Below are positions 1 through 25,253 of a stretch of DNA of 64,000 nucleotides, piece by piece. The first letter of the stretch is position 1. The number at the start of each line of letters is the position of its first letter. Made by a program: the position numbers and the translations under genes. The notes under the pieces were generated by a model, which saw only the letters and a program-made list of their open reading frames with translations, was not told the DNA's origin and did not search any database. The DNA comes from an uncultured Gammaproteobacteria bacterium (GTDB lineage: Bacteria > Pseudomonadota > Gammaproteobacteria > Xanthomonadales > Xanthomonadaceae), in NCBI GenBank assembly GCA_963722915.1, contig CAVROR010000012.1, forward strand, positions 2,182 to 66,181. The letters are read 5' to 3'.

Positions 1-403
1 CCATGTCGGTGCCGAAGGCCAGCGTGCGCGGCGTGCCGTTGACGTCCAGCTGAAGCGTGGTGGACTCGTCGGCGGTGGTCTCGACCATGTCCACGTACTG
101 CAGGTAGCTGTCGCCGTTTCCGGGCTTCAGCCCCATGCGCTGGAACTGCGCGGTCAGGTACTCGACCGTCTTCTGCTCGCCGATGCTGCCGGGGGCGCGG
201 CCGGCGAACTCGTCAGAGGACAGGATGCGCACGTGCTCGGCGAAATCGGCGGCGGTGATGGCCGGCTCGAATGCGTGGGCCGCGGCGGGGGCCTGGACGG
301 GGGTGGCGACCGGGGCCGGCGCTTCGGCCGGCCTGTTGCAGGCCGCGAGCACCAGCGCGGCGGCCACCAGCGTGGTGGCGGAGGAAAGCGGAGTGCGGTT
401 CAT
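1..403 (-). CDS. M28-family peptidase lipoprotein, N-terminal part (gene continues past window start)
   Basis: ATG at 403 (minus) after GGAG. Own translation MNRTPLSSATTLVAAALVLAACNRPAEAP (lipobox LAAC), then ITAADFAEHVRILSSDEFAGRAPGSIGEQKTVEYLTAQFQRMGLKPGN, typical of the N-terminal region of M28 aminopeptidases. Frame is open to position 1. Confidence 0.6.
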   Translation of the reverse strand, partial: MNRTPLSSATTLVAAALVLAACNRPAEAPAPVATPVQAPAAAHAFEPAITAADFAEHVRILSSDEFAGRAPGSIGEQKTVEYLTAQFQRMGLKPGNGDSYLQYVDMVETTADESTTLQLDVNGTPRTLAFGTDM

Positions 404-565
404 GGAAGCTCCGGGGCGGCCGATGGTCGGCGGAAGCCCCATTCTATGCGCGCGTGCGGGCGGGACGGGCGATGCACGGTGCCGCGCGTGCCCGCCTTGC
501 AGGGCGGGCTTGCCCGTGAGGGGGCCGGTGATGACGGCTGGAGCCGTTCCTCCCTGTCCGACGGA

Positions 566-1249
566 TCAGTCGCGCGGCGCGCGATCGCCTTCGTAGCGCT
601 GTGCGGTGGCACCGGTGACCGGCCCGATCCGTGCGGTGCTGTGCACGTACAGCTTGACCTCGCGTTCGAACACCAGCGGCCCGTCGACGCGGGCGTTGGG
701 ACCGACGATGACGCGCGGCACGCGCTGCTTGCCCAGGCCGATCCAGTTGCGCGTGGGCTTGGTGTAGCGGATGCCGCCGCGCACATGCGAGCCGGCCCCG
801 ACGGTGAGGTCGCCATTGACCGTCTCGACACTGCCGGCCACCGAGGTGGCGACCAGGCCGATCGCGCCGTTGACCGTTTCGATGTCGCCGCCGATGGCGC
901 CGCCGCGGTCGATGAAGACGCTGCCGTTGACGGTGCCGACATCGCCGCGGGTCTGCAGGCCGGTGCCGGCGCGGATGCTGCCGTTGACCGTGGACAGGCT
1001 GTCGGCGCGCACATCGTTGCCGACGGTGATGCTGCCGTTGACGGTCTCGGCATCGCGCAGTTGCACACCGGCGTCGACGCGGATGCTGCCGTTGACGGTT
1101 TCCAGGGTGCCGTAGGTCTGGCCGGCGTCGGCGCTGATGCTGCCGTTGACCTTGTCGATGCTGGTCTGGGCCAGGGCGGGCACGGCGCACAGCGCCAGCG
1201 TGAGCGACAGGGCGGCGGCGAGAGGACGGGCGGTGCGGAGGTGGGTCAT
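566..1249 (-). CDS. secreted repeat protein with about eight ~19-aa (T)VNGSI repeats, probable beta-helix, function unknown
   Basis: Last 227 codons of minus ORF 566..3046, starting MTHLRTARPLAAALSLTLALCAVPALAQT (signal peptide, ATG at 1249). Repeats: ETVNGSIRVDAG, ETVNGSITVGND, STVNGSIRAGTG, GTVNGSVFIDRG, ETVNGAIGLV, ETVNGDLTVGAG. The upstream part of the long ORF is antisense to gpmI. Confidence 0.7.
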   Translation of the reverse strand: MTHLRTARPLAAALSLTLALCAVPALAQTSIDKVNGSISADAGQTYGTLETVNGSIRVDAGVQLRDAETVNGSITVGNDVRADSLSTVNGSIRAGTGLQTRGDVGTVNGSVFIDRGGAIGGDIETVNGAIGLVATSVAGSVETVNGDLTVGAGSHVRGGIRYTKPTRNWIGLGKQRVPRVIVGPNARVDGPLVFEREVKLYVHSTARIGPVTGATAQRYEGDRAPRD

Positions 1250-1354
1250 GGTCGGTTCCCTGTGATCGGTCCGCGTGGGATGCGGCGGGTGGAGCTCAGG
1301 TTTAACCCGCTTGGCTACAATCGGCCCCTGCCTGAAGTCACCGGAACCATCGTC

Positions 1355-2944
1355 GTGCCCCAATCCATCACCACGCCCAACGGTCCGTCCACCGCTCAGG
1401 GCCGGGGCATCCGACCGGTCGTCCTGCTGATCCTGGACGGCTGGGGGCACCGCGACGACCCGACCGACAACGCCCTGGCGCAGGCCCGCCTGCCCAACTG
1501 GCATGCCCTGCTGGCGCGCGCACCGCACACGCTGATCCACACCGAGGGCCGCCATGTCGGGCTGCCGGAGGGGCAGATGGGCAACTCGGAGGTCGGCCAC
1601 ATGAACCTCGGGGCCGGCCGCATCGTCTACCAGGACCTGACGCGCATCGACGCGGCGATCGAGGACGGCAGTTTCCACCTCAACCCGCAACTGCGCGCCG
1701 CGTGCGCCGATGCATGCGTGCAGGGCCGCACGCTGCACCTGATGGCGCTGGTCTCGCCGGGCGGCGTGCACAGCCACGAACGCCACCTGCACGCGATGAT
1801 CGACCTGGCCCGCCGCGAGGGCGTGCCGCGGGTCGCAGTGCACGCGTTCCTCGACGGCCGCGACATGCCGCCGCAGTCGGCCGGTCCCAGCATCGACGCG
1901 CTGCAGGCGGTGTGTGACGCGGCCGGCAACGCGCGCATCGCCAGCGTCAGCGGACGCTACTACGCGATGGACCGCGACCAGCGCTGGGACCGCGTGCGCC
2001 GCGCATGGGATGCGATGGTCGAGGCCTCCAGCGACCACCATGCGCCCGATGCGCGCACCGCGCTCGGCGATGCATATGCGCGCGGCGAGACCGACGAGTT
2101 CGTGCTGCCGACCGTGATCGACGACGGCGCGACGATGCGCGACGGCGACGCGGTGGTGTTCATGAACTTCCGCGCCGACCGCGCCCGGCAACTGACGGCG
2201 GCGTTCGTCGCGGGCGACTTCCACGGGTTCGAGGCGCGCCGCCCGCAGCTGTCGCGCTTCGTCTGCCTGACCGAGTACGACGCGCGCCTGCCGGCGCCGG
2301 TGGCCTTCGCGCCCGACGACCTGCGCGACACGCTGGGTGACGTGGTCGCCGCTGCCGGGCTGCGCCAGCTGCGCATCGCCGAGACCGAAAAATACGCACA
2401 CGTAACGTTCTTCTTCAGCGGCGGGCGCGAGGCGCCGTTCGAGGGCGAGCAGCGCATCCTGGTGCCCAGTCCGAAGGTCGCCACCTACGACCTGCAGCCG
2501 GAGATGAGCTGCCCTGAGGTCACCGCGCGCCTGGTGGCGGCGATCCGCAACGGCGAGTGCGACGTGGCCATGTGCAACATCGCCAACCCCGACATGGTCG
2601 GTCACACCGGCAACTTCGCCGCTGCGGTGCTGGCCGCCGAGGCCGTGGACGTGGCGATCGGCGAAATCGCCCGCGCCGTGGACGAGGTGGACGGCGCGCT
2701 GCTGGTCACCGCCGACCACGGCAACCTGGAACTGATGCACGACGCCGCCACCGGGCAGCCGCACACCGCGCACACGGTCGGCCCGGTGCCGTTCGTCTAT
2801 GCCGGCCCGCGCCCGGCGCGGTTGCGCGACGGCGGCGCACTGCAGGACGTGGCCCCCACCGTTCTCGACCTGCTGGGCCTGCCGCAGCCGTCGTCGATGA
2901 CCGGGCGCAGCCTGCTGCTCGCCGGGGACGGCGCGGCCGCCTGA
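1355..2944 (+). CDS. gpmI: 2,3-bisphosphoglycerate-independent phosphoglycerate mutase
   Basis: Motifs VVLLILDGWGHRDD, NSEVGHMNLGAGR, VTADHGNLE in ORF 233..2944. About 529 aa if started at GTG 1355; the upstream 370 codons of the ORF overlap the antisense gene. Start codon is uncertain. Confidence 0.9.
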   Translation: MPQSITTPNGPSTAQGRGIRPVVLLILDGWGHRDDPTDNALAQARLPNWHALLARAPHTLIHTEGRHVGLPEGQMGNSEVGHMNLGAGRIVYQDLTRIDAAIEDGSFHLNPQLRAACADACVQGRTLHLMALVSPGGVHSHERHLHAMIDLARREGVPRVAVHAFLDGRDMPPQSAGPSIDALQAVCDAAGNARIASVSGRYYAMDRDQRWDRVRRAWDAMVEASSDHHAPDARTALGDAYARGETDEFVLPTVIDDGATMRDGDAVVFMNFRADRARQLTAAFVAGDFHGFEARRPQLSRFVCLTEYDARLPAPVAFAPDDLRDTLGDVVAAAGLRQLRIAETEKYAHVTFFFSGGREAPFEGEQRILVPSPKVATYDLQPEMSCPEVTARLVAAIRNGECDVAMCNIANPDMVGHTGNFAAAVLAAEAVDVAIGEIARAVDEVDGALLVTADHGNLELMHDAATGQPHTAHTVGPVPFVYAGPRPARLRDGGALQDVAPTVLDLLGLPQPSSMTGRSLLLAGDGAAA

Positions 2945-4218
2945 TGCGCATCCGCCTGCGCACCGGCGTGCGACCGCTGGCGGCGGCGATGCTGGCGTTC
3001 GCGCTGCTCGCGTGGGCGCTGCCCGTGCCTGCCCAGCCGGTGCCAACCCAAAGCAGCCGCGAGGCCGAGCGCCGGCTGGAGCGCATCCGCAGCGAGCTCA
3101 AGGCCGTCGCCGCCGAGCGGCGCACGCTGGAGGGCGAACGCGGCACCGCGGCGCGCGCCCTGCGCCAGGCTGACGAGGCTGTGGGTCTCTCCACACGGCA
3201 GCTGGCGCAGACGCGCGAGCGCCTGGCGCAGGAGCAGCAGGCGCTGCAGGCCGTGCAACGCGACCGCGCGCAGTTGCGGGTGCGGCTGGACGAGCAGCGC
3301 ACCCAGCTGGCGCGCCTGCTGCGCGCGGCCTACCGCGAACGCGACGATGCCCCGCTCAAGGCGCTGCTGGCGCAGGACCGCCTCGCCGACGCCAACCGCG
3401 TGCTGGCCTACCACCGCTACCTGCAGCGCCACCGCGCCACACGCCTGGTCGCGCTGTCGCAGGACCTGCGCGAGATGGACCGCGTCGAAAGCGAAATCGT
3501 GCAGCGCCAGGCGCAGCTCGATGCCACCCGCGAGCAGCTGGAGCAGCAACTGGCCGGCCTGGAGCGCGACCGTGGCACGCGCGCCGAGGTGGTGGCGCGG
3601 CTGGATCGCAGCCACCAGGACCGCGCGGCGCGCGAACGTGCACTGGGTCGCGATGCGAAGTCGCTCGAACAACTGCTGGCACGCCTCCGCGCAACCGCCG
3701 CCCGCGCCCAGGCGGCGCGCCGCGCGGCCGAGCAGAAGGCCGCGCGCGACGCCACGCGGCCCCCGGCCAGCGGCGGTGCGCGTCCGGCGCCGGCGCGTGC
3801 GCCCGCGCGAGCCGTGGCGTCGGCCCCGCCCCCGCAGGTGGGCGGCATGGGCTGGCCGGTGTCGGGTGCGCTGCTGGCCGGTTACGGCGGCCGGCTGCCG
3901 GACGGGCGCGGCACCAGCACCGGCCTGCTGATCGGTGCCGCCGCCGGCGCGCCCGTGCGCGCGGTGGCCGACGGGCAGGTGGTGTACGCCGAATGGATGA
4001 CCGGCTACGGCCTGCTGCTGATCGTCGACCACGGCAACGGTTACATGAGCCTGTACGCCCACAGCGACGCGCTGCTCAAGGACGCCGGCGACCGCGTGAC
4101 AAAGGGCGAGGCGGTGGCGGCGGTGGGCAGCTCCGGCGGCCACGGCCGGCCGGCGCTGTACTTCGAATTGCGCCGCAACGGCCAGCCGGTGGATCCCGCG
4201 GCCTGGCTGCGACGCTGA
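2944..4218 (+). CDS. envC: murein hydrolase activator EnvC-like, coiled-coil plus M23/LytM domain
   Basis: ATG 2944 overlaps the gpmI stop (TGATG). Signal peptide MRIRLRTGVRPLAAAMLAFALLAWALPVPAQP, a long Q/R/E/L coiled-coil region, and C-terminal LLIVDHGNGYMSLYAHSDALLKDAGDRVTKGEAVAAVGSSGG. Confidence 0.85.
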   Translation: MRIRLRTGVRPLAAAMLAFALLAWALPVPAQPVPTQSSREAERRLERIRSELKAVAAERRTLEGERGTAARALRQADEAVGLSTRQLAQTRERLAQEQQALQAVQRDRAQLRVRLDEQRTQLARLLRAAYRERDDAPLKALLAQDRLADANRVLAYHRYLQRHRATRLVALSQDLREMDRVESEIVQRQAQLDATREQLEQQLAGLERDRGTRAEVVARLDRSHQDRAARERALGRDAKSLEQLLARLRATAARAQAARRAAEQKAARDATRPPASGGARPAPARAPARAVASAPPPQVGGMGWPVSGALLAGYGGRLPDGRGTSTGLLIGAAAGAPVRAVADGQVVYAEWMTGYGLLLIVDHGNGYMSLYAHSDALLKDAGDRVTKGEAVAAVGSSGGHGRPALYFELRRNGQPVDPAAWLRR

Positions 4219-8925: not shown

Positions 8926-9312
8926 TTACTGGGAGAGTCCGGGGTTGAAGGGTACTGCGGTGGGGTTGGATTGGGTTCGGTGGTTAGCGGCAAACTGGGC
9001 CGGCGGGATGCGTCCGCAACTGCTGTGCGGTCGCACCTGGTTGTAGTCGCGGCGCCACTCGGCGATGACGTCGCGGGATTGGACCAACGACGCGAACCAG
9101 TGCTCGTTGAGGCACTCGTCGCGGAACTTGCCGTTGAAGCTCTCGATGTAGCCGTTTTGCATGGGCCGGCCAGGTTCGATCAGCAGGTGCTGGATGCCGT
9201 GCTGCTGCGTCCATGCAATGAAGGCCCGGCTGGTGAACTCCGGACCGTTGTCGGTGCGCACGGCCCGCGGGTAGCCGCGGAACCGCGCCGCCTGGTCCAG
9301 CACGCGCACGAC
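8926..9312 (-). pseudogene. IS3-family transposase OrfB, C-terminal fragment
   Basis: VVRVLDQAARFRGYPRAVRTDNGPEFTSRAFIAWTQQHGIQHLLIEPGRPMQNGYIESFNGKFRDECLNEHWF... (DDE integrase core, third acidic residue region). Begins abruptly at the 9312/9313 junction. Confidence 0.9.
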
Positions 9313-9403
9313 TGCGTATTGCCACCGAGTTGACCACTCATTGCCAAATCAACTGACCGCAATCGGCAGCACCACTGACCACGGTCGCCATCCAACTGAC
9401 CAG
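9313..9403 (+). repeat. left-end terminal repeat array (4-5 units, 21-23-bp period)
   Basis: tattgccacc, then TGACCAC 9331, CTGACCGC 9353, CTGACCAC 9375, CTGACCAG 9396. This is the inverted orientation of the right-end array. Confidence 0.8.
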
Positions 9404-9596
9404 TTCCCGACTTCAAATTCATTCTTTGCATGCTGTGTAGCACATAGGAGCATCTAGCTTCAGCCCTGATCGATCTGCGTCATCAGAGCCGAAGTAAGGG
9501 AGGCAAGCGAACGTGAGGGTCGGCAGGGATTCGTGTAAAAAACAGCCGAATTCGCTCTAAGTCTTTGACTCCACAAGCTTTAGGCCGTGTACCAAC

Positions 9597-10577
9597 TCAT
9601 AAATTCAATCTGGCGACGCCGTATGCTGCGGTGACCTCTCGGTCGCGTTTCTGCAGCCAGTCTTTGGTGGCACTTCGTCCGATCGGTGTGCCGGCGCGAC
9701 GATGAACCAGCTGCGCGAGCTTCACGCGCATGCCCGGATCACGGCACAGAAAAATGATCGGTTCGAGGTCCGCGCCGATAAACGCGTGCCCGTCCGCTAA
9801 CAGCCGTCTCGCCAGTTCGACCCGCTGGGCATGGCCGCCGAGGACTGCATTGAGAGCTTTAACCGCCGCGGCCCGTTTCGGCCCCTCGTCCGGCAACTGG
9901 GCGGCGTAGCTATGGCGAAGCTTGGAGACCGCCCGCATTTCCTGCTCGACTCTGCCGGGCGCGCAGGCCCTCACTCCCGGCAAATTACCCACCGGGATGG
10001 GTACCACCTTGGGCGGACTGATGACGTCGCCCGCCTCGTCTCGAATTGCGGGTGTAAAGCCCTGAACCGTTACGCGCGTCGAGCCTGACAACGCTTGGGT
10101 TCCAATGCGGGCCCATGTCGAAGGCCCGGTTGCAGTGGCAAGTCGATAAAAATGCGTGTGGAGTTCTTTGAGTTCGTCGAGCACCCGACCGAGCTCAGCA
10201 ATTTTAGCCTCACGGTCGGCAAGCAGCGTTTGCAAACGTCCCTCGCGTTCCAGCCGTGTGATCTCGTTGTCGGCTCGCTTCATGTCCTGCAAGGCAATCG
10301 AGCCGGCCGCAAACTTGTCCTGGGCGCAGTCCCCGCCAATCAGCGTCACGGCGCCGTCTTTGCGCCGAGCGACCCATCCCCGCCCATGTTTTCGACTGCA
10401 GAGCTTTCCTGTCGGCTTAAGTACGCAACACAACAGGGGTTCGTCGGCGAACGCGTACCACCCCACCAGCATCGCGTAACTGTCGACGTCGATGGGTTCG
10501 TCAGGCCGAAAATGCGGCTCCCTCAGGATCTCGGCGACTGATTCGAACCTGCGCACCCCTTGGACGGTTTCCACCAT
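9597..10577 (-). CDS. hypothetical protein, 326 aa, no family recognised
   Basis: Intact ORF with GGAGAC 6 nt before the ATG. N-terminal Cys/His cluster (CCVLKPTGKLCSRKHGRGW...GGDC), central predicted coiled coil (LQDMKRADNEITRLEREGRLQTLLADREAKIAELGRVLDELKELH). No signal peptide or TM segment. Visibly lower GC than the core genome. Confidence 0.7.
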   Translation of the reverse strand: MVETVQGVRRFESVAEILREPHFRPDEPIDVDSYAMLVGWYAFADEPLLCCVLKPTGKLCSRKHGRGWVARRKDGAVTLIGGDCAQDKFAAGSIALQDMKRADNEITRLEREGRLQTLLADREAKIAELGRVLDELKELHTHFYRLATATGPSTWARIGTQALSGSTRVTVQGFTPAIRDEAGDVISPPKVVPIPVGNLPGVRACAPGRVEQEMRAVSKLRHSYAAQLPDEGPKRAAAVKALNAVLGGHAQRVELARRLLADGHAFIGADLEPIIFLCRDPGMRVKLAQLVHRRAGTPIGRSATKDWLQKRDREVTAAYGVARLNL

Positions 10578-10584
10578 CTCTGTC

Positions 10585-10758
10585 TCCGGCTCTGAGCTCT
10601 GTCGATCCTAAGGAGGGTCGGCAGGCAGGGCGAGCGATACCCTGTTCCAGTTTGGCAATGTAGCGCCGCACCTGCTCATCGCCCCATTGCTTGCGTGTGT
10701 AGCGGATGACGCCGCGCATGTCGGCTTCTGCCGCATCCGTCAGCATGAAGACGGTCAA
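10585..10758 (-). pseudogene. parE: ParE/RelE-family toxin, N-terminal ~55 codons only
   Basis: (MTVF)MLTDAAEADMRGVIRYTRKQWGDEQVRRYIAKLEQGIA...PSLG..ELRAG matches the N-terminal half of ParE toxins. The C-terminal half is missing and the frame runs into unrelated sequence. The start overlaps the parD stop. Confidence 0.7.
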
Positions 10759-11009
10759 ACGCGGCGGCCTTCGGCCAGTTCTTCATTGAGGATTTCGTTG
10801 ACGCTCTTGGCCGACACCTTCCCCGCCAGACCCTCGTTGATGCGCCCACCCAACAGGACTTTCAGCTCCTGCCATGCCTGATCGGCGTGGATGTCGCCGG
10901 GAAAGAGTCGTTCGAGTGCATATTGCTTGATCGTCTTGCCCTGCACGGCGGCCAACGCCTTGAGGCTTTGGTGCTGCTGGTCGGTGATGTCGATAGTCAG
11001 CCGGCTCAT
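10755..11009 (-). CDS. parD: ParD-type ribbon-helix-helix antitoxin
   Basis: MSRLTIDITDQQHQSLKALAAVQGKTIKQYALERLFPGD..., 84 aa. The stop overlaps the toxin start (TTGA). Confidence 0.75.
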   Translation of the reverse strand: MSRLTIDITDQQHQSLKALAAVQGKTIKQYALERLFPGDIHADQAWQELKVLLGGRINEGLAGKVSAKSVNEILNEELAEGRRV

Positions 11010-11116
11010 CGATAAATGGCTCCGTAGGCTCCCACAAACCCACATTGGCACATAAGGAAGCAACGAGCAATCCGAGAACGTACAGACGCTTCAGGCCCAA
11101 GAACTTCATGCCAGAT

Positions 11117-11132
11117 AGTGAGTTAACTCACT
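11117..11132. promoter_or_regulatory. perfect 16-bp palindrome AGTGAGTTAACTCACT (candidate operator)
   Basis: Exact dyad, about 110 bp upstream of the parD ATG, at the junction with the ynfA stub. Confidence 0.35.
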
Positions 11133-11143
11133 TTTGGCTGTTC

Positions 11144-11245
11144 TTAGCACGATTCCCTGCCGGCCCTTAGATAGGGCAGATAGCAGCCGACAATCTCGGT
11201 CAGGGCGGTCAACGCGAACAGCGCAAAGAGCTTCAGAACCAGCAT
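11144..11245 (-). pseudogene. ynfA: YnfA (UPF0060) family membrane protein, first ~30 codons only
   Basis: MLVLKLFALFALTALTEIVGCYLPYL... matches the YnfA N-terminus (E. coli: ALCEIIGCFLPWLWL), followed by a premature stop. The full family length is about 108 aa. Confidence 0.55.
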
Positions 11246-11327
11246 GGTTAGCCTCGTGGAGTGAAGGGCGCACCGTAGTGCTGCGGCGCTCGTTCGAAAC
11301 CGTCGCCGCAACACCAGACCCCATGCG

Positions 11328-17023
<5,696 letters not shown>

Positions 17024-17034
17024 GCGTGGCGGCC

Positions 17035-18051
17035 TCAGTGGTCGTGCGAGGCGCCGGACTTCTCGATGTCCGCCTTCACCAGGTAGCTCTGCTCGACCAC
17101 GACCTGCTCGCCGGCTTTGAGGCCGGACAGCACTTCGACCCGCGCTGGCATCGCGCTTGCCCAAGCTCGACCGGCCGCACCTCGTAGGTGTCGCCCGACG
17201 CGGACGAACACCACGTCCCAGTCGCGGAACCGTGTCTGCAGCGCCGTCGAGCGGCACCACCAGCGCGACCGGCTGCTGCGCCACCGTGATGCGCGCCTTG
17301 ACCGCCGAGCCCGGCCGCCACAGGCCATCGACGTTCTGCGATGCGTCGCGCGCGCGACGGTGCTCTGGCTCGCGGTTGCCGTGCCGGCAGCACGCGTTCG
17401 AGCACCGTTTCGGCGGTCACGCCGTCGCTCATGCGGGTCACGACCACCGGGCACGCCCGGCGGTGATGTGCTGCGCATCGGCACCGAAGATGTGCAGGTC
17501 GACCCACAGCTCGGACAGGTCCGCGATCTCGAACAGCGGCACGCCTTCGCTGGCGACCGCGCCGACGGCGGCATCGCGCGCCAGCACCACGCCGGAGATC
17601 GGCGCGGCGACGGTGTACGTCGTCAGGCTGAGATTGCTTTCGATCGTCGCCAGCGCCTGGCCCGCCGCGACACGGTCGCCGACGTTGGCGCGCAGCGACG
17701 GATCGGGCCGGGGAAGCGCGCCGTGACCTGCGCGACGCGGCCTTCGACCGGCGTCAGCAGGCCCTGCACCTCATGCTCGTCGGCGATCGTGCCGGCCGCG
17801 ACCGCCGCGACCTCGACCCCGGACTGCTTGGCGACGTCCGCCGCAATGGTGGTGCTGGGCGGGCCTTCTTCGTGCCCGGCTTCGCTCTCGGCGTGCTTAT
17901 CGCCGCCGCTGGACGCTGCGCCGGCGTCGTGGTCGTCGTTGTGTGCTTCACCGGCGTGCTCGTCGGCACCTGCGGGCGGCGTTGCCGGCTTGTCGCCGCA
18001 GCCGGCCAGCAGCATGACCAAGGCCAACTGGGCCAGGGTGGAACGGATCAT
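17035..18051 (-). pseudogene. czcB: RND membrane-fusion protein CzcB, frame broken several times
   Basis: Lipoprotein N-terminus MIRSTLAQLALVMLLAGCG with a His/Asp-rich region. Middle part (GDTYEVRPVELG) and C-terminus (VEVLSGLKAGEQVVVEQSYLVKADIEKSGASHDH) are in other frames. Confidence 0.7.
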
Positions 18052-19328
18052 GGGGTGTCTCCTTGCAGGCGCTCAGGCGCGGCAGTCACAAAGGACTCGC
18101 CGGTCAGGCGCTGGATTTCGATCAGGGCACGCTGGGCTTCCAGCGCGGCTTCGAGTTGTTGTTTGCGCGCGTTTGTCGTCTCGGACTGCAACTGCGCCCA
18201 TTCGAGGTAGCTGATCGCGCCGGCCCGGTAGGCCTGTTCGGCGGCCGCTTCGGCACGCGTGAGCTTCGGCAACACGTCGCGCTGCAGGCGGTCGACCTCG
18301 ACCTGCGCCGACAGGAAACGGCCATGTGCTTCGGCGAGCGTCGAATACAGGGCCAGACCGCGTGCTTCGCGCTCGATCTCCAGCGACACCAGCTCGGCCT
18401 GGGCTTGGCGGATCTCAGGCTTCGCGCGGGTGGCGCCTCCCAACGGCATCGAGATGCTGCCCACCAGTGCGACATCGTCGCTGGCCTGCAGACGACGCAC
18501 GCCAATCTGCCAATCCAGATCCGCACTGGCCGATGTGCGTGCCAGTTGCAGGCGCGCCTCGCGAATACGTAGCTCGCCAGCGAACTGCGCCAGCTCCGGC
18601 GTGCGCTGCAACAGATCCGCCAGCTCACCGAAGGCAGCGATGCGGGGCAGCGCGAGCGGGTTGGCCGCGACCACATCGAAGGTCGGAGCGCGCTCGCCCC
18701 ACAGGGCGGCCAGGTGCTGTCTGGCCGCGACGTGGCGCTGATCGGCGCGAGCATGATCAAGCTCCGCGCGGGCCAGCATGGCCTGCGCGGTGAGCACGAC
18801 CGACTCGGGCGACGCCCCGGCCTCGAGGCGCTTGCGCGCCCCGGCGACGGTACGGGTGCGCTGCCCGATGTCGAGTTGCGCGATCTCGCGCTGACGCATC
18901 GCCGAGACGATGGCCAGATAACGCCGAGCAACCTCGGCCAGCAGGTCGAGCCGGCGCACTTCGCGCTCCAGCGCGAGCGCATCGATCCGGCTTTGCCCCA
19001 GAGTGCGGCGTGCTTCGAGTTTGCCGCCGCGCTCGAACACCGAGGCCAACGTCAGGGTCAGTTCGGCGCCTTGCACGCCGCTGGCGTCGCCGGTGCCGCC
19101 GACGTTCTCGAGTTCGGCGCCCACCACCCACGGCGGTCGGAACGCGGCCCGGTCCCGCTCGGCAGTGAGCGCGTCACGGCGCGGCCCCAGCAGTCTTAAG
19201 TCAGGGTGGGTCTTGGCGACGCGCTCGAAGGCGTCGTTCAGGGTCAAGCGGTCGGCAGCGAGCGATGGCCAGACGGCCAATGCGCACGCCGCGACGAGCA
19301 CGGCTTTCGCCGCGAGTCGCAAACGCAT
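18048..19328 (-). CDS. czcC: TolC-family outer-membrane factor CzcC
   Basis: Intact 426-aa ORF with a signal peptide and two OEP-type repeats. The stop overlaps the czcB start. Confidence 0.85.
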   Translation of the reverse strand: MRLRLAAKAVLVAACALAVWPSLAADRLTLNDAFERVAKTHPDLRLLGPRRDALTAERDRAAFRPPWVVGAELENVGGTGDASGVQGAELTLTLASVFERGGKLEARRTLGQSRIDALALEREVRRLDLLAEVARRYLAIVSAMRQREIAQLDIGQRTRTVAGARKRLEAGASPESVVLTAQAMLARAELDHARADQRHVAARQHLAALWGERAPTFDVVAANPLALPRIAAFGELADLLQRTPELAQFAGELRIREARLQLARTSASADLDWQIGVRRLQASDDVALVGSISMPLGGATRAKPEIRQAQAELVSLEIEREARGLALYSTLAEAHGRFLSAQVEVDRLQRDVLPKLTRAEAAAEQAYRAGAISYLEWAQLQSETTNARKQQLEAALEAQRALIEIQRLTGESFVTAAPERLQGDTP

Positions 19329-19383
19329 GAGAGTGCTCCGATGAACTCAGGGGATCGCAGGACCGGCACGCAGCCGGTAGCGG

Positions 19384-19767
19384 TCATGCCCGGATCGGAG
19401 GACGGAACGGGGCCAGTGCGGGCTCGGTCGCCACGCGTTGCGCGGTCCAGGGCCGTATCGGCAAGGGAGCGTGGACCGTCAGCGGCGCGTCGATGACCGG
19501 CGCGAGCATCGCCGAGAGCTGGCCACAACAATGCGCAAAGTGGTGAATGAGGTGCAGGGTTCCGGCAGTGCGATCACCCGATTCGTCGGCTTGCGCCAGT
19601 TCGGTCTGGACATCACTGCCGTCGTGTAGGTGCTGCTCGCTGAGCCCGTGGGTCAGCTCGTGCAATTCGCCCATCGCCGCCAGCATCGGCTGAAATACCC
19701 CGCCCAATAGCAGCCCCACCAGCAGGAGCCAGGGCAGGAGCGATCGATGGGAAGGGTGGCGCTTCAT
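19384..19767 (-). CDS. CzcI-like small periplasmic protein
   Basis: 127 aa with a signal peptide and the motif HLIHHFAHCCGQLS, resembling the CC/His motif of CzcI. Position immediately upstream of czcC. Confidence 0.55.
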   Translation of the reverse strand: MKRHPSHRSLLPWLLLVGLLLGGVFQPMLAAMGELHELTHGLSEQHLHDGSDVQTELAQADESGDRTAGTLHLIHHFAHCCGQLSAMLAPVIDAPLTVHAPLPIRPWTAQRVATEPALAPFRPPIRA

Positions 19768-20393
19768 GGGGCGGTGTTTTCGTTGTGCCGTCGCGTCGAC
19801 GAGCGCGCTTGTCGCGCCTCTCGCAGGATCTCAACAGCTTCCTTGACCACGTAAAGCCCGATCAAAGTGCCTATCACGTAGTCAGGGTACGGTGACGCAA
19901 GCACCATCACCAGCAGTCCTGCCACGATCACACCGATATTGGCCACCACGTCGGCCCGGGTGAAGATCCACGTGGATCGTAAGTGCACTTCACCAGAGCG
20001 GAACGGCGCGAGTAGACGCAAGACGGTGAGATTCACGGCCAGCGACAGCACGGCCGTAGCGATCATCCAGCTGCTTTGCGGCTCGGCGCCGTCCACCACG
20101 CGGCGGCCGACCTCGAGCAAAACCCCGAGCCCCAGTACCAGCAAGGCAACGCCGCTCACCATGGCGGCATTCGCCTTGAACCGCACCGAGCGGCCGATCG
20201 CCACCAGCCCGATCGCATAGGCCGTCGCGTCAGAAAGCATGTCGAGCGCGTCCGCCAGCAGGCCGGTCGATTGGCCCTTCCAGCCGGCGATGCCGCCAAT
20301 GACGGCCATCGACGCATTGAGAACCAGCGCGATCACAAGGATGCGCCGTTCGTTGGCATTCTTCGCTTCCGCGTGGCAACCGCAGTCGCTCAA
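19764..20393 (-). CDS. czcD: cation diffusion facilitator family transporter (short CzcD-like)
   Basis: MSDCGCHAEAKN... with TM motifs LLADALDMLSDATAY and RADVVANIGVIVAG. The stop overlaps the next gene (ATGA). Confidence 0.8.
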   Translation of the reverse strand: MSDCGCHAEAKNANERRILVIALVLNASMAVIGGIAGWKGQSTGLLADALDMLSDATAYAIGLVAIGRSVRFKANAAMVSGVALLVLGLGVLLEVGRRVVDGAEPQSSWMIATAVLSLAVNLTVLRLLAPFRSGEVHLRSTWIFTRADVVANIGVIVAGLLVMVLASPYPDYVIGTLIGLYVVKEAVEILREARQARSSTRRHNENTAP

Positions 20394-20440
20394 CGGGCGC
20401 TCCTCGACTCGGTTCCCGACGTGGCATCCGACAGGGAGCC

Positions 20441-20471
20441 AGCGTAAAGTCCGTACCCACTACGGAGTCAA
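20441..20471 (-). promoter_or_regulatory. MerR-type promoter: -35 TTGACT, 19-bp spacer containing a dyad, -10 TACGCT
   Basis: Minus strand reads TTGACTccgtagtgggtacggacttTACGCT. Dyad TCCGTA-N5-TACGGA lies at 20450-20466. About 48 nt upstream of the czcD ATG and divergent from merR. Confidence 0.6.
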
Positions 20472-20481
20472 GACGGTCCGC

Positions 20482-20898
20482 ATGAAGATCAGCGAAGCGG
20501 CAGCCGCGAGCGGTTGCCATCTGGAAACCGTCCGCTATTACGAGCGGGTGGGGTTAATGCCGGCTCCGGCGCGGGTGGGCAGCGGGTACCGTGCCTATTC
20601 CGAGCAGGATGTCGCGCGGCTGCGCTTCATCACGCGCGGTCGGACCTTGGGCTTCAGCCTGGACGACATTCGCAGTCTTCTACGACTGGACGATGACCCG
20701 CAGTTGTCTTGCACCGAGGTGGATGGCGTAGCGCGCACCCACCTGGCTGATGTTCGACGCCGGATCGATGCCCTGCAGCGCATCGCGGACGAGCTGGAAC
20801 GGGTCATCACCCAATGCGCCGGCGGTGTACGCGGGCAGTGCGCCATCCTGGGCACGCTGCGGCACCCGACGATGGCATCGAGCGAGCCGCAGGGGTAG
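20482..20898 (+). CDS. MerR-family metal-responsive transcriptional regulator (CadR/ZntR-like)
   Basis: MKISEAAAASGCHLETVRYYERVGLMP...YRAYSEQDVARLRFITRGRTLGFSLDDI. C-terminal Cys residues (C...CAGGVRGQC). Confidence 0.85.
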   Translation: MKISEAAAASGCHLETVRYYERVGLMPAPARVGSGYRAYSEQDVARLRFITRGRTLGFSLDDIRSLLRLDDDPQLSCTEVDGVARTHLADVRRRIDALQRIADELERVITQCAGGVRGQCAILGTLRHPTMASSEPQG

Positions 20899-20902
20899 GC
20901 GC

Positions 20903-21223
20903 GTGACGCTGGATCGCTATCTGGAGGCGGCCACTCGCGAAAACACGCGCCGCAGCTATCAATCGGCGGTGCGCCATTTTGAAGTCGAATGGGGCGGCCA
21001 TCTTCCGGCCACCGCCGACAGCGTGGCGCGTTACCTGGCCGACCATGCCAGTCGCCTCGCGATCAACACGCTCAAGCAGCGGTTGGCGGCACTAGCGCAA
21101 TGGCACACCGAACACGGGTTCGTCGATCCAACCCGGCCGCCTCTGGTGCGCAAGCCGGATGCGTTGTATTCAATCCTAGATAGTCTGCGCAGGCCCATTT
21201 TCGAGCATCAGATTGCGGAATGA
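20903..21223 (+). pseudogene. tyrosine recombinase/integrase, N-terminal SAM-like domain only
   Basis: VTLDRYLEAATRENTRRSYQSAVRHFEVEWGGHLPATADSVARYLADHASRLAINTLKQRLAALAQWH...PLVRK. Similarity stops near 21165, where GC drops. No catalytic domain. Confidence 0.65.
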
Positions 21224-21452
21224 TGTGATCGCAAAACGCTTGCGCAGCATCGCCTCGCATGCGGAAACTTTGCGTTTCATCGTGGGCTAGAAAGCATCAC
21301 AAATACTGGTTCTTGATCGCCAATATTCCAGTGCCGTCAAAATAAAATAACGACAAAAAGATAAGTCGCGTGCCGTTGATTAAAACCCTATGCGATTGCG
21401 GGCGAAGTCGGTAATGTGCCGCTTCCTACTGCAACACAGGCACTGATTGCTC

Positions 21453-21743
21453 ATGGCAAGCGCTGATGTGTGGACGGAAGAGATCGTGGCGTCTTTCGGT
21501 CCGTACGTGCCACTAGCCCGCATTTGGCCATTACTGTCTCTGCCTTCGGCGGACGCAGCCAGAAGGGCTGCTGCAAGGGGGTCAACGCCAGTGCAATGCG
21601 TCTCCCTAGAAGGAAGACGCGGCTGGCATCTGCGTGCAGGTGACTTGGCGCTTTGGCTGAGCGAATCGCTGCACGATACGCGGACTGGTAATGAAGCTCG
21701 CGAATTCGCCCGCGAGCAAATTCGGCGGTTGACCAAAGACTGA
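21453..21743 (+). CDS. PrtN-like (pyocin activator family) small DNA-binding protein
   Basis: MASADVWTEEIVASFGPYVPLARIWPLLSLPSADAARRAAARGSTPVQCVSLEGRRGWHLRAGDLALWLSE follows the PrtN/excisionase-like pattern. Lies in a low-GC, AT-rich setting. Confidence 0.5.
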   Translation: MASADVWTEEIVASFGPYVPLARIWPLLSLPSADAARRAAARGSTPVQCVSLEGRRGWHLRAGDLALWLSESLHDTRTGNEAREFAREQIRRLTKD

Positions 21744-22064
21744 TCGCCAAGCACTCAGCTACGTCCGGGCTTACCTGCCACTAACCGCGCGAACCCAGGT
21801 CATCGACCAACACCAACGGCAAGGAGATCACCAACCGGGAACTTTCAAGCCGCGTTTCAGAGCACTAACCAAAAAGCACGGGCGTAAAAAAAGCCGGCGC
21901 CTTCACGGGGCACCAGCTTTTCTCGTGGGAACTACGCTGTCGTTTGTTAGGGCGACGGCTGCATTCTCATTCGCTGCACCCGGCATGTCAAGCGCTCGCG
22001 GCCGCCCCAACGGCGCGCGACGGGCAGCTGCGTCCGCTCGATTCGTATCGAATGAGAAGAATTC

Positions 22065-23587
22065 ATGATCCAAAAAAATCTATGTCGGCTGCTGCTCACC
22101 ACAGACCTGTCGAATCGCGAGATTGCGCAGCGATGCAGCGTTTCTCACAACACCGCCGGACGCTATCGAGAACGGCTCCTCGAAGAGAGCTTATGCTGGG
22201 AACAGGTTCGCAGGCTTTCCGGAGAAGCGCTCAACGCCCGCCTCAACGGGGCGCGCGATCGACGCAAAAAGACGTTTGTCGAACCTGACTGGTCTCATGT
22301 TCACGCCGAGCTTCATCGACCTGGCGTAACGATCACTCTTCTGTACAGGAGTATGCGACAGGCATTGATGCGGGACAGATGTCAGACCGCGAGTTTCGCC
22401 GTCGCTACGATCGTTACACACGGTCCCTTGGCCTAGTGATGCGCCAAGCGCGCCGACCGGGCGAAGAGCTCTACGTTGATTACTCGGGTAAGCGCCCCTC
22501 AGTGGTGGATGCGAATACGGGCGTTGCAACTCCAGTCGAATTGTGGATCGGCGTGCTCGGTTCCAGTCGGAAAACGTTCGCGTATTGCACGCCGACCCAG
22601 CAAGTTCCGGACTGGATCGACGCACATGTACGTGCACTTGAGTTTTACGGCGCACTGCCTCAGCACTTGGTGCCGGACAACCTCAAATCGGCGGTAACCA
22701 AGATTTCGCGCAAGGACGGCCACTACGTCAATCCCTCCTACCAGGCATTCGCAGACCACTATGACCTGATGGTCTTGCCGACGCGTCCGCGCAAGCCAAA
22801 AGACAAGGCCGCCGTCGAATGCGGAGTGCGGTTGGCTCAAATGTGGATCCTCGCGCGACTCAGAAACCGCACTTTTTTCTCGATTCAGGACTTGAACAGG
22901 GCAATCGCTGAGTTGCTGATTCGGCTCAATAGCAGACCGATGCGCTTGCGCGGTGGAAAGAGCCGAAACGACTTGTTTGAGGAAATCGACTCACCGGCGA
23001 TGCGGCCTCTTCCGGTACAGGCCTATGAGTTCGCAGAGTGGCGGATCGGAGTAACGATTGCGCAGGACTATCACGTCGTCTCGGAGCGCAACTACTACTC
23101 AGTTCCCTACACACTGGTGTCGCGGAAGGTCAACGTGCGCATAACTACCACTGTGATCGAGGTTTACCACCGCGATCAACTCGTCGCCACGCATCAACGC
23201 TCCTACGGTATAGATGATGTCTTCACCAAATCTGAGCACCAGCCACCAGCGCATCGGCTCTACGGGGAAGAACAAATGGCCAGCCTCATCGCATGGGCTG
23301 AAGCAGCAGGACCTCTCGTCGCCGACTTCGTTCGCCAGCACATGAAGTCTCATTCTGCCGCCGCCTCAATCCAGGCGTTTCGTGGCCTCAAGCGGCTTGC
23401 ACGGGATTTCAGTGTGGAACGCCTGAGTGATGCGTGTGCGCGCGCACTCCGCATGAAGGCGACCTCAATCACATCCGTGCGCTCAATGCTCTCGCGCGGC
23501 ATCGAGAAAACGCCGCTGCAGCTCGAAGCAGTCAATGAAGCAACTACGACCCACGCGAACGTGCGTGGTGCCGAAAATTATCAGTAG
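22065..23587 (+). CDS. istA: IS21-family transposase IstA (one frameshift near 22346 in this sequence)
   Basis: N-terminal HTH piece MIQKNLCRLLLTTDLSNREIAQRCSVSHNTAGRY...VTITLLY (frame 0) continues as (Q)EYATGIDAGQMSDREFRRRYDRY...LYVDYSGK...LVPDNLKSAV (ORF 22379..23587) if one base is restored after CTGTAC. Confidence 0.85.
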
Positions 23588-23598
23588 GAAAGCTATAT

Positions 23599-24339
23599 AT
23601 GAACCACATCCACACGATCGGACAGCTGCGCAGCTTGCGCTTGGCCGGCATGGCCCAGGCATTTGAGCAGCAGATAGGCGACAGCGCTTTCGCGAGTTTG
23701 GCGTTCGAACAGCGCGTTCAGATGATGGTGGAAGCAGAGGCATCGCAGCGCGATACGCAGCGTTATCTGCGTCTGCTTAAGACGGCGAAGCTCAAGGTCG
23801 TTGCCGCACCTGAGGACATAGACTATAGGCCGGGACGCGGACTGGACAAAACCGTGATAGCCGACCTGCTGACATGCACGTGGATCAATGCACATCGCAA
23901 CGTGCTGATCACTGGCGCTACCGGCACCGGAAAAACATGGCTTGGTTGTGCGCTAGGCGTACAGGCAGCTCGTCATGGCATTTCTGTCGCATATCGGCGA
24001 ACAGCAAGAATGTTGGAAGAGATGGCGATCGGGCATGAAGATGGAACGATCTCACGTCAGCGCAACCAACTTGAGAAAGCACATCTGCTCATTCTCGACG
24101 ATTTCGGTCTGACCGCGTTGTCGAATCGCGGCCGATCCGACCTCCTTGAAGTGCTGGATGATCGAGTCGGAAGCGGCGCCACGCTCATCATTGGCCAGAT
24201 GCCCGTAAAGGAATGGCATGGATACATCAATGATCCAGCGCTCGCCGACGCCATTCTCGATCGACTCGTCCACAGCAGCGTCAAACTTGACTTGAAGGGC
24301 GACTCGATGCGGCGAGCCCGTAGCCGGGGTGGTCAATAG
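23599..24339 (+). CDS. istB: IS21-family helper ATPase IstB
   Basis: Walker A ITGATGTGKTWL and Walker B LLILDDFG. 246 aa, starts 12 nt after the istA stop. Confidence 0.9.
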   Translation: MNHIHTIGQLRSLRLAGMAQAFEQQIGDSAFASLAFEQRVQMMVEAEASQRDTQRYLRLLKTAKLKVVAAPEDIDYRPGRGLDKTVIADLLTCTWINAHRNVLITGATGTGKTWLGCALGVQAARHGISVAYRRTARMLEEMAIGHEDGTISRQRNQLEKAHLLILDDFGLTALSNRGRSDLLEVLDDRVGSGATLIIGQMPVKEWHGYINDPALADAILDRLVHSSVKLDLKGDSMRRARSRGGQ

Positions 24340-24500
24340 TTTGCCGGAGCTGGGCAGAGAACTGCCGGAACTGGGCAGCGAATTGCCTGAAGTGGGCACG
24401 CTGCTGCCGAAGCTGGTCAGCGTGTCCGCCGGTTGTGGTCAGTCTTGCTGGCGAACGTGGTCAGTGCGAATGGCGGAGGTGGGCAATGGGCTGGCGGTTC
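24330..24500 (+). repeat. right-end terminal repeat array, 8 tandem units with 21-23-bp period
   Basis: Cores TGGTCA/TGGGCA at 24330, 24351, 24372, 24393, 24414, 24437, 24459 and 24481. Unit approximately GCCGGAnnTGGkCAGnnnnnn. The array starts inside the last codons of istB and ends at the insertion junction. Confidence 0.85.
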
Positions 24501-24998
24501 GCACGACGTACGCGCCGCTGATGCCATGGTCGACCGTGATGTCGACGCACTCGTGGGTAAAGTCATCGGCGACCGTCAGACACTTCAGGCGGCGTCCATT
24601 GGCCAGCGCGTCGCTGACGAAGTCCATGCTCCACACCGCGTTGGGTGCTGTTGCCGACGACAGCGGCTGGCGTTCGCTCGGTGGCCTGCGGATCTTCTTG
24701 CGACGGCGAACGGCCAAGTTCGCCTCGCGATACAGGCGGTAGACCTTCTTGTGGTTCACAGCCGGGTACTCCGGACGCAGCAGGTCGTGCAGGCGGCGAT
24801 AGCCGAACCTGCGGCGCACCTGCGCCAGCTCGATGATCCGCGCCGACAGCGCCTGCGTCGCAGGCGCCTGTTCGGGCGGGTGGCGGAAGGCATCGCGGGA
24901 GAGCCCCGCAAGGCGGCAGGCCCGTCGTTCGCTCACTGCCGTGGCATCGAGCATGCGGCGGACCGCCTCGCGCTTGCGTTGCGGGGCTAGCGTTTTAC
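24501..24998 (-). pseudogene. IS3-family transposase OrfB, N-terminal fragment
   Basis: ...LAPQRKREAVRRMLDATAVSERRACRLAGLSRDAF...WSMDFVSDALANGRRLKCLTVADDFTHECVDITVDHGISGAYVVR, then the junction. Overlaps the orfA end in the -1 frame around GTAAAAC (24992-24998), the likely programmed frameshift site. Confidence 0.85.
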
Positions 24999-25253
24999 CC
25001 CGAAGCCGACCTTCAACGCCTCGATGTCCAGGTGCGCTTCGGCCAGCAGCCGCTTCAGCCGATTGTTCTCCGACTCCAGCTCCTTCAGGCGCTTGGCGTC
25101 CTCCGCCTCCATGCCGCCGTACTTGGCCCGCCAGGCGTAGAAGCTGGCCGGGCTGAAGCCGTGCTGCCGGCCCAGCTCCGATACCGCCATGCCGGCCTCG
25201 GCCTGCTTGATGAAGCCAATGATCTGTTCCGTGGTGAAGCGACTCTTACGCAT
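24987..25253 (-). CDS. IS3-family transposase OrfA (HTH)
   Basis: MRKSRFTTEQIIGFIKQAEAGMAVSELGRQHGFSPASFYAWRAKYGGMEAEDAKRLKELESENNRLKRLLAEAHLD, 88 aa. Confidence 0.9.
   Translation of the reverse strand: MRKSRFTTEQIIGFIKQAEAGMAVSELGRQHGFSPASFYAWRAKYGGMEAEDAKRLKELESENNRLKRLLAEAHLDIEALKVGFGVKR

Follow-up and report, generated by a model that had tools for sequence, protein, structure and literature searches.

Expanded, phased repeat arrays at the ends of a 15.2-kb IS21-type transposon and of related elements

Background

Insertion sequences of the IS21 family are about 2-2.6 kb long, carry only the genes istA and istB and duplicate 4-8 bp of their target (ISfinder); in IS21 itself, the left end holds more repeats. 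Multiple transposase sites are also found at the ends of larger elements, with 3+4 sites in Tn7 and 3+3 sites in Mu. Tn5090/Tn402, which encodes TniA/TniB/TniQ and a resolvase, has arrays of 19-bp direct repeats inside its ends, unequal in number (2 and 4 copies), that are bound by a DDE transposase working with an ATPase. Here we describe a 15.2-kb IS21-type transposon with long arrays of short repeats at its ends and compare it with related elements. It is located in a stretch of 64,000 nucleotides, hereafter the window, from an uncultured gammaproteobacterium of the Xanthomonadaceae (assembly GCA_963722915.1, contig CAVROR010000012.1, positions 2,182 to 66,181 of the forward strand).

The number of repeats at IS21 ends is described as 'usually at least two' (PMC10122671). 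In IS5376, the two N-terminal helix-turn-helix (HTH) domains of IstA read each repeat at two conserved blocks, spaced by about one helical turn. Integration of IS5376 was shown experimentally to need two full repeats; in the tetramer, the catalytic subunits occupy R1 and the structural subunits R2, and the target duplication is 5 bp (PMC10122671). Several copies of the transposase recognition sequence are likewise present at the ends of Mu and Tn7 (PMC10122671). Target immunity has been suggested for IstB and is unproven (PMC11208146).

Results and discussion

An IS21-derived transposon inserted as one unit

The element spans 15,191 bp (9313-24503), has the tips TGCGTA…TTCGCA and is flanked on both sides by CGAC. 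Deletion of 9313-24507, which comprises the element and one CGAC copy, restores an open reading frame (ORF) of 277 amino acids for an IS3-family rve transposase; the 15,191-bp element was therefore inserted as one unit. Since CGCA happens to recur in the target, the duplication could formally extend to as many as 8 bp (CGCACGAC). Together with the same motif in inverted orientation at the two ends, the restored ORF bears out the initial annotation of this DNA, in which the two arrays were taken for the ends of a single IS21-type element. The transposon is nested within an IS3-family element, the orfB of which was the target. The putative orfA of this host element is likely to lie just beyond, at about 24987-25253 on the minus strand.

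By its proteins, termini, multi-repeat ends and target duplication, the element belongs to the IS21 family. IstA combines an rve core with a Mu-transposase-like beta-barrel domain, despite one frameshift, and its D, D and E motifs are readable in translation (VDYSG, VPDNLK and AAVECG). The start of istB lies 12 bp after the istA stop codon. Both genes adjoin the right end, and the tips are of the TG...CA type with multiple direct repeats at both ends. IstA proteins of the clade described below are homologous to that of IS5376 (PDB 8B4H/8Q4D; E = 2e-10), the structure of which has been determined in complex with the R1/R2 repeats. The element does not fit the strict definition of an insertion sequence: with its 15,191 bp and 12.6 kb of passenger genes, which separate the left end from istA, it is an IS21-derived transposon.

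If unbroken, IstA would comprise about 507 amino acids, and one base is missing near 22344. With P0002 and P0008 as queries, tblastn matched the gene in two pieces in different frames, 22065-22343 in frame +3 and from 22346 in frame +2. Across 22340-22350, the window reads LLY in frame +3 and QEYATG in frame +2; relatives read LLYEEYA uninterrupted. Because istA is frameshifted, the window copy as read could not move by itself, unless the missing base reflects an error of sequencing.

Organization of the terminal repeat arrays

The right end covers 182 bp with eight units and the left end 98 bp with four. The right-end cores TGGKCA start at 24330, 24351, 24372, 24393, 24414, 24436, 24458 and 24480, and their spacing is 21, 21, 21, 21, 22, 22 and 22 bp without any 23-bp step. 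The number of units and the first five positions are those of the initial annotation, in which the last three cores had been placed one base off (24437, 24459 and 24481) and one step of 22 bp had been given as 23. At the left end, the inverted cores follow the tip TGCGTATTGCCACC at exactly the positions given there (9331, 9353, 9375 and 9396). As also noted there, the array begins inside the last istB codons, where the core of the first unit (TGGTCA, 24330) falls within GGT GGT CAA TAG. The extra half-site at the right tip is likewise present (TGGCGG, 24493-24498, beyond the last core), and the spacing of 21-22 bp agrees with the proposed phasing of roughly two helical turns.

Each unit contains two conserved half-sites, TGCCGG/TGGCG (a) and TGGKCAG (b), that start 8-9 bp apart. 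In the left-end units, half-site a (YYGCCA-like) and half-site b (YTGACCA) are separated by 5-6 bp. The four-unit layout is identical at both ends and begins 6 bp from the tip. On the plus strand, the motif GCCGGANNTGGKCAG was matched with 0-2 mismatches at 24343, 24364, 24385, 24406, 24428, 24450 and 24472; the first right-end unit is weaker.

Across the 64 kb of the window, the two arrays were the only places at which a weight matrix derived from the units reached a score of at least 15, a specificity that is partly circular because the matrix comes from the same units. We also applied an independent, motif-free test for chains of similar 7-mers spaced 20-24 bp apart to 1,160 overlapping segments of 220 bp, and chains of at least six were found only in the right array. 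The left array, with a chain of four, is not unusual in this test alone; it is specific because its motif is identical to that of the right array in inverted orientation. Owing to the divergence of the units, Tandem Repeats Finder reported no more than 2.7 copies (24342-24398). Pairwise, the units differ at 4-13 of 21 positions, with units 2 and 3 the most similar pair (17/21 bases), and this divergence counts against an assembly expansion. Promoter and terminator scans of the right end yielded nothing convincing. At the left end, the promoter scan was also unconvincing and the only terminator-like site is within chance expectation. A second, istA-proximal left end was looked for and not found in the window.

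The right array is crossed by an ORF (24329-24742) with the repeated heptad peptide LPELGxE, and similar array-crossing ORFs are called by gene callers in related loci (L022, 10265-10618; L014, 5265-6227). Such ORFs run through the arrays because the inner units are 21 bp, or seven codons, long, and they are almost certainly spurious.

Related elements and the number of units

Many full-length IstA relatives with 50-79% identity were found in the protein database, and the closest named elements, ISPpu7, ISPre4 and ISIde2, have IstA proteins only 44-52% identical to that of the window. The contigs of ten IstA relatives were looked up, with DNA sequence for nine of them. Altogether, the comparison set included 14 elements or lineages, in which IstA is 52-76% identical to the window protein where istA is present. 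DNA similarity to the window is confined to 21953-24503 and the left-end repeats. No close copy was found by megablast of the istAB region against plasmids; a scan of genome contigs returned only relatives at 34-41% identity, which were used as an outgroup, and a scan of viral contigs returned none.

Every related locus with a readable right end has a long array of the same kind, ranging from 4 to 10 units, and the left end has 3-4 units wherever it is readable. Four right-end units were counted in L040 (Xanthomonas plasmid; IstA 52%; core changed to TGTCCAG), five in L029 (74%) and in each of five mini-elements without istA, six in L132 (74%) and L134 (69%), and seven in L036 (63%). The eight units of the window element are matched in L015 (76%) and L016 (73%). 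The largest numbers were found in L026 (68%; ten units) and L032 (Ralstonia type; 55%; core changed to TGCGCAG; about 9-10 units). The ordinary IS21 ends examined here are smaller, as the initial annotation had stated. Repeats at 23 bp number four on the left and three on the right in ISPre4 (IstA 44%, about 2.6 kb); in distant members of the family (34-41% identity), there are 3-5 at about 23 bp, and the general description is 'usually at least two' (PMC10122671). The further claim of the initial annotation that eight copies are exceptional does not hold by the refuting test proposed there, since the relatives also have long right arrays and eight units are therefore ordinary for the subgroup. 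The end architecture has more units than ordinary IS21 ends, yet is normal for a little-studied branch.

The spacing pattern recurs across lineages, with 2-3 tip-proximal steps of 22 bp and inner steps of 21 bp. The tips are conserved as well, and the window conforms to the signature of the clade (left TGCG(T/A)(A/G)TTGCCA, right GGCG(G/T)TT(T/C)G(C/T)A, and TGGKCAG-type units); its tip and layout are also found in the left ends of L026, L036, L029 and L132 and in at least 41 left ends from metagenomes. The eight-unit arrays of the window, L015 and L016, from elements with 73-76% identical IstA, were aligned without gaps over 182 bp. Invariant positions in this alignment amount to 75% in half-site b, 56% in half-site a and 35% in the spacers, and the half-sites are more conserved than the spacers in the inner units too. 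Near-identical element copies in different contigs have identical arrays, so the unit number varies between lineages and is not hypervariable. The copy-number-variable end suggested in the initial annotation is thus real between lineages and absent within them. In HTH-1 of IstA, most TGGKCAG-type elements have H at residue 28, and the two with altered cores have P, with one exception and in a small sample.

Autonomous members of the clade are 8-15 kb long. The P0022 element (9.45 kb) was found at three sites, and one genome contains two of these; 7-bp duplications flank two of the insertions, and one insertion splits a nitroreductase gene. One of its three copies (L037, 2980 and 12426) is without a matching target duplication, which may be due to recombination with a second copy present in the same 4.26-Mb contig. 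The P0017 element, which is 12.0 kb long and carries RHS toxins as cargo, occurs at two sites with both flanks different. The P0013 and P0012 elements are 12.1 kb and about 8.1 kb long, respectively. In L016 (P0015 lineage), a gene for a 553-amino-acid DUF7380 protein (10276-12262) is placed between istB and the eight-unit array, and cargo can therefore reside on either side of istAB. In L029, the left end occurs twice in identical form and the same orientation (4245 and 4819, a distance of 574 bp), just downstream of a Tn7-like tnsA-tnsB-tnsC(-tniQ) cluster.

Upstream of istA, a divergent gene pair was found in the loci of all ten related IstA lineages looked up (for example, L027, 8503-9813; loci L011-L039 and L132-L134). 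Its minus strand encodes an XRE-type regulator together with a protein of about 190 amino acids, and its plus strand encodes a Ner-like HTH_35 protein, the top PDB match of which is Ner of phage Mu (1NEQ, E = 1e-3). The protein of about 190 amino acids looks membrane-associated, and the module is laid out in a way similar to the early region of phage Mu (c, ner, A, B). When the module proteins were used as tblastn queries, the XRE-type regulator, the Ner-like protein and the protein of about 190 amino acids were all absent from the window. At the place of the Ner-like gene, the window has an ORF for 98 amino acids (21447-21743) without a Pfam or PHROG match, which by eye we take to resemble small regulators of the PrtN/AlpA type.

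Elements without transposase genes

A metagenome scan with the left-tip pattern returned 89 stretches, and 80 loci were examined. At least 41 of these are true left ends, and istAB was found in none of the 80. Five left ends are paired with a right end 1.2-5.3 kb away, with neither istA nor istB detected in between, and clean duplications of 5-6 bp were found at four of the five. These mini-elements look like non-autonomous derivatives that would need to be mobilised in trans. Their cargo includes a Pycsar cyclase with its PycTM effector, a TacA-GNAT toxin-antitoxin pair, a Sel1-repeat protein and a NOV_C protein.

Proposed function of the arrays

We consider it likely that the arrays serve a single 15.2-kb IS21-type transposon as the terminal repeats to which its transposase binds; the inner units would act as accessory sites, with binding by IstA predicted from the example of IS5376. 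A single mobile unit is supported by the same motif inverted at both ends and by the same tips in related elements; elements with such ends occupy several sites and have target duplications, whether or not they encode a transposase themselves. On the model of IS5376, each unit probably forms a single bipartite site for IstA and would be bound by one protomer through HTH-1 and HTH-2. The outermost units would hold the catalytic and structural subunits, as in that system. The outer four units would position IstA subunits for synapsis of the ends and cleavage at the terminal CA, and, as happens in IS21, the target would be brought in by IstB. The inner 21-bp units of the right end probably arose by tandem duplication and would have been kept as working sites in the lineage; they might be lineage-specific accessory sites. 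The inner units lie on one face of the DNA, because a spacing of 21 bp corresponds to about two helical turns, and a large IstA assembly on the array, as suggested in the initial annotation, is plausible. Such units might load extra IstA beside the istAB operon, might help to pair ends many kilobases apart or might strengthen target immunity.

Several points weigh against this reading. The assignment of the half-sites to IstA is by analogy for the whole clade. The frameshift in istA and the partial decay of the cargo may mean that the window copy is dead. Elements with 4 or 5 units still bear target duplications or occupy several insertion sites, and the extra units are therefore not essential. 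The target duplication reads as 4 bp in the window versus 5-7 bp in related elements, a difference that may reflect a 2-bp loss at the right junction or a variable stagger. Finally, longer elements tend to have more units (Spearman 0.82, p = 0.004, n = 10), in a correlation that ignores shared ancestry, which the five mini-elements in it probably have, and that is not significant among the five autonomous elements.

The inner units might instead be neutral products of slippage or unequal exchange, so that only the outermost two to four sites matter. The range from 4 to 10 units between lineages fits this explanation, as do the marks of transposition in elements with 4 or 5 units, and the similarity of units 2 and 3 would follow from duplication or conversion. 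We regard it as unlikely, because three lineages with 73-76% identical IstA share collinear arrays of eight units, the excess conservation of half-sites over spacers extends to the inner units, and the spacing is constant at 21-22 bp with no length variation in near-identical copies.

A role as a platform for another protein, as in plasmid-type iterons, a partition site or regulator operators, is suggested by the iteron-like form of phased direct repeats of 21-22 bp and by the XRE-type and Ner-like regulators encoded in related elements. However, the motif is inverted at the opposite tip and ends 6 bp from the conserved TG...CA terminus. It is present in the window element, which has neither regulator, and in mini-elements of 1.2-5.3 kb in which istA and istB were not found; moreover, no replication or partition gene was identified beside the array. 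This makes such a platform highly improbable. The least probable explanation, for which we see hardly any room, is that the array is a collapsed or expanded repeat of the assembly, or the coding sequence of the LPELGxE ORF. Its unit of seven codons, the gene calls in related loci and the many frame breaks in the cargo, which could mean sequence errors, are compatible with this. On the other hand, the divergence of the units and the collinear arrays in independent assemblies are not expected of an artefact; as for coding, units of 22 bp break the frame, and the ORF passes the element tip into the flanking IS3 gene.

Beyond the assignment of the arrays to IstA, we tentatively propose that an undescribed branch of IS21 has turned into unit transposons, with a Mu-like repressor/Ner switch in most autonomous members and an IstA assembly larger than a tetramer on the right end for end pairing or target immunity; taken as a whole, this proposal is somewhat unlikely. 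If it is true, the branch moves genes for defence, toxins and metal resistance. In the literature searched, we found neither IS21-type cargo transposons nor a subgroup of them with transposase-less mini-elements described, which is an absence of evidence only.

Cargo and neighbouring features

The features of the window element and of the mini-elements are listed in Table 1. The cargo between the left end and istA has a GC content of about 0.70, compared with 0.58 in the istAB part. Next to the left end, a segment with a 35-bp inverted repeat at its borders has the appearance of a small cassette of transposon origin within the cargo. Its arms are 83% complementary, the arm matches more than 200 Xanthomonas plasmids, and no clear target duplication was seen at the segment; the inverted repeat is presumably Tn3-family-like. 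The cargo genes in 11328-18051 are decayed or poorly sequenced, and the czcC-like, cation-diffusion-facilitator and MerR-family genes beside them are intact. In L134, czcCBA-like genes (1-4142) are also found upstream of istAB, in an element with 69% identical IstA and the same GGCGGTTCGCA tip, the left end of which is not reached. Metal-efflux cargo may thus be recurrent in the clade.

Table 1. Coordinates of features in the 64-kb window and of related mini-elements
Feature	Position	Strand	Evidence and remarks
IS3-family orfB, 3' part (rve transposase, target gene)	8926-9312	-	fuses with 24508-24954 into 277-amino-acid ORF
Left target-site duplication copy	9309-9312		CGAC; same bases at 24504-24507
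Left end	9313-9410	+	tip TGCGTA, four bipartite units, one additional inner a-like half-site
Cargo segment with 35-bp inverted repeat at borders	9516-11167		arms 9516-9550 and 11133-11167
326-amino-acid ORF	9597-10577	-	phrog_7003
parE	10501-10758	-	Pfam ParE_toxin
parD	10755-11063	-	Pfam ParD
P-type ATPase gene fragments, several frames	11328-13100 (approximate)	-	Pfam Hydrolase and E1-E2_ATPase pieces in different ORFs
czcCBA-like efflux cluster	13867-19328	-	Pfam ACR_tran pieces in five ORFs, OEP; tblastn with Xanthomonas plasmid CzcCBA proteins
czcA-like gene	13867-17023	-	broken across at least five ORFs in different frames
czcB-like gene	17038-18051	-	broken into three pieces
czcC-like gene	18048-19328	-	intact
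DUF2946 gene	19384-19767	-	Pfam
Cation-diffusion-facilitator gene	19764-20393	-	Pfam; tblastn with plasmid cation-diffusion-facilitator protein, 78% identity
MerR-family regulator	about 20482-20898	+	Pfam
Conserved stretch upstream of istA	21953-22064	+	start of DNA similarity; blastn against L015, L029 and L026
istA (IS21-type DDE transposase)	22065-23587	+	Pfam rve, Mu-transpos_C_2
istB (AAA+ helper ATPase, 246 amino acids, intact)	23599-24339	+	Pfam IstB_IS21, E = 5.9e-68
Right end	24322-24503	+	eight bipartite units, b cores TGGKCA; nine a half-sites; terminal GGTTCGCA
Right target-site duplication copy	24504-24507		CGAC
IS3-family orfB, 5' part	24508-24954	-	fuses with 8926-9312
Mini-element	L046, 905-3381		both end arrays, without istA/istB
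Mini-element	L053, 4407-9664		both end arrays, without istA/istB
Mini-element	L075, 918-2175		both end arrays, without istA/istB
Mini-element	L100, 128-1862		both end arrays, without istA/istB
Mini-element	L121, 128-2028		both end arrays, without istA/istB

Significance

What makes these observations valuable is less the count of eight units than the recognition of a clade of cargo-carrying, IS21-derived transposons whose ends are expanded, asymmetric and phased. IS21 serves as a structural model for AAA+-dependent transposases, built on a tetramer and two repeats at each end. With its 4 + 4-10 phased sites, the natural clade described here offers a ready test of larger assemblies, of the pairing of distant ends and of target immunity. 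Since its members are annotated only as 'IS21 family transposase', cargo in elements of 8-15 kb goes unrecognised as mobile, including metal efflux genes, RHS toxins, restriction-modification genes, Pycsar systems and toxin-antitoxin pairs. The conserved tips and arrays provide a simple signature by which autonomous and transposase-less elements alike can be found.

Comparison with known systems

Tn6050, considered as a relative for its sulP-dksA cargo, was rejected as a member of the Tn3 family. With plasmid iterons, the window arrays share phased direct repeats of about 22 bp. They differ in abutting the cleavage terminus and in their presence at both ends of a transposon, with inverted orientation at the far one; a rep gene was not identified beside the array. 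Tn5090/Tn402 is similar in having arrayed direct repeats, more of them on one end, and a DDE transposase with an ATPase, and differs in its transposase family, fewer copies and other spacing.

Tn7 and Mu resemble the window element in asymmetric multi-site ends with more and denser sites on the right, in a DDE transposase with an AAA+ partner and in a large cargo. However, the window proteins are of the IS21 type, and the Mu-like XRE/Ner-like pair occurs in relatives and is absent from the window. Pfam searches of the scanned ORFs of the element revealed no tnsA, tnsB, tnsC or tniQ families, and no phage genes were identified.

In its proteins and termini, the element is close to IS21 and IS5376, with which it shares the operon of istA (DDE) and istB (AAA+), TG...CA termini, a short target duplication and several direct terminal repeats, each with two conserved blocks. 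It differs in its size of 15.2 kb versus about 2.5 kb, in a left end 12.6 kb away from istA, and in eight right and four left units at 21-22 bp compared with 2-5 repeats at about 23 bp. The longer array of the window is at the istB end, whereas in ISPre4 the left end has the larger number of repeats. Identity of IstA between the window and named IS21 elements is at most 52%.

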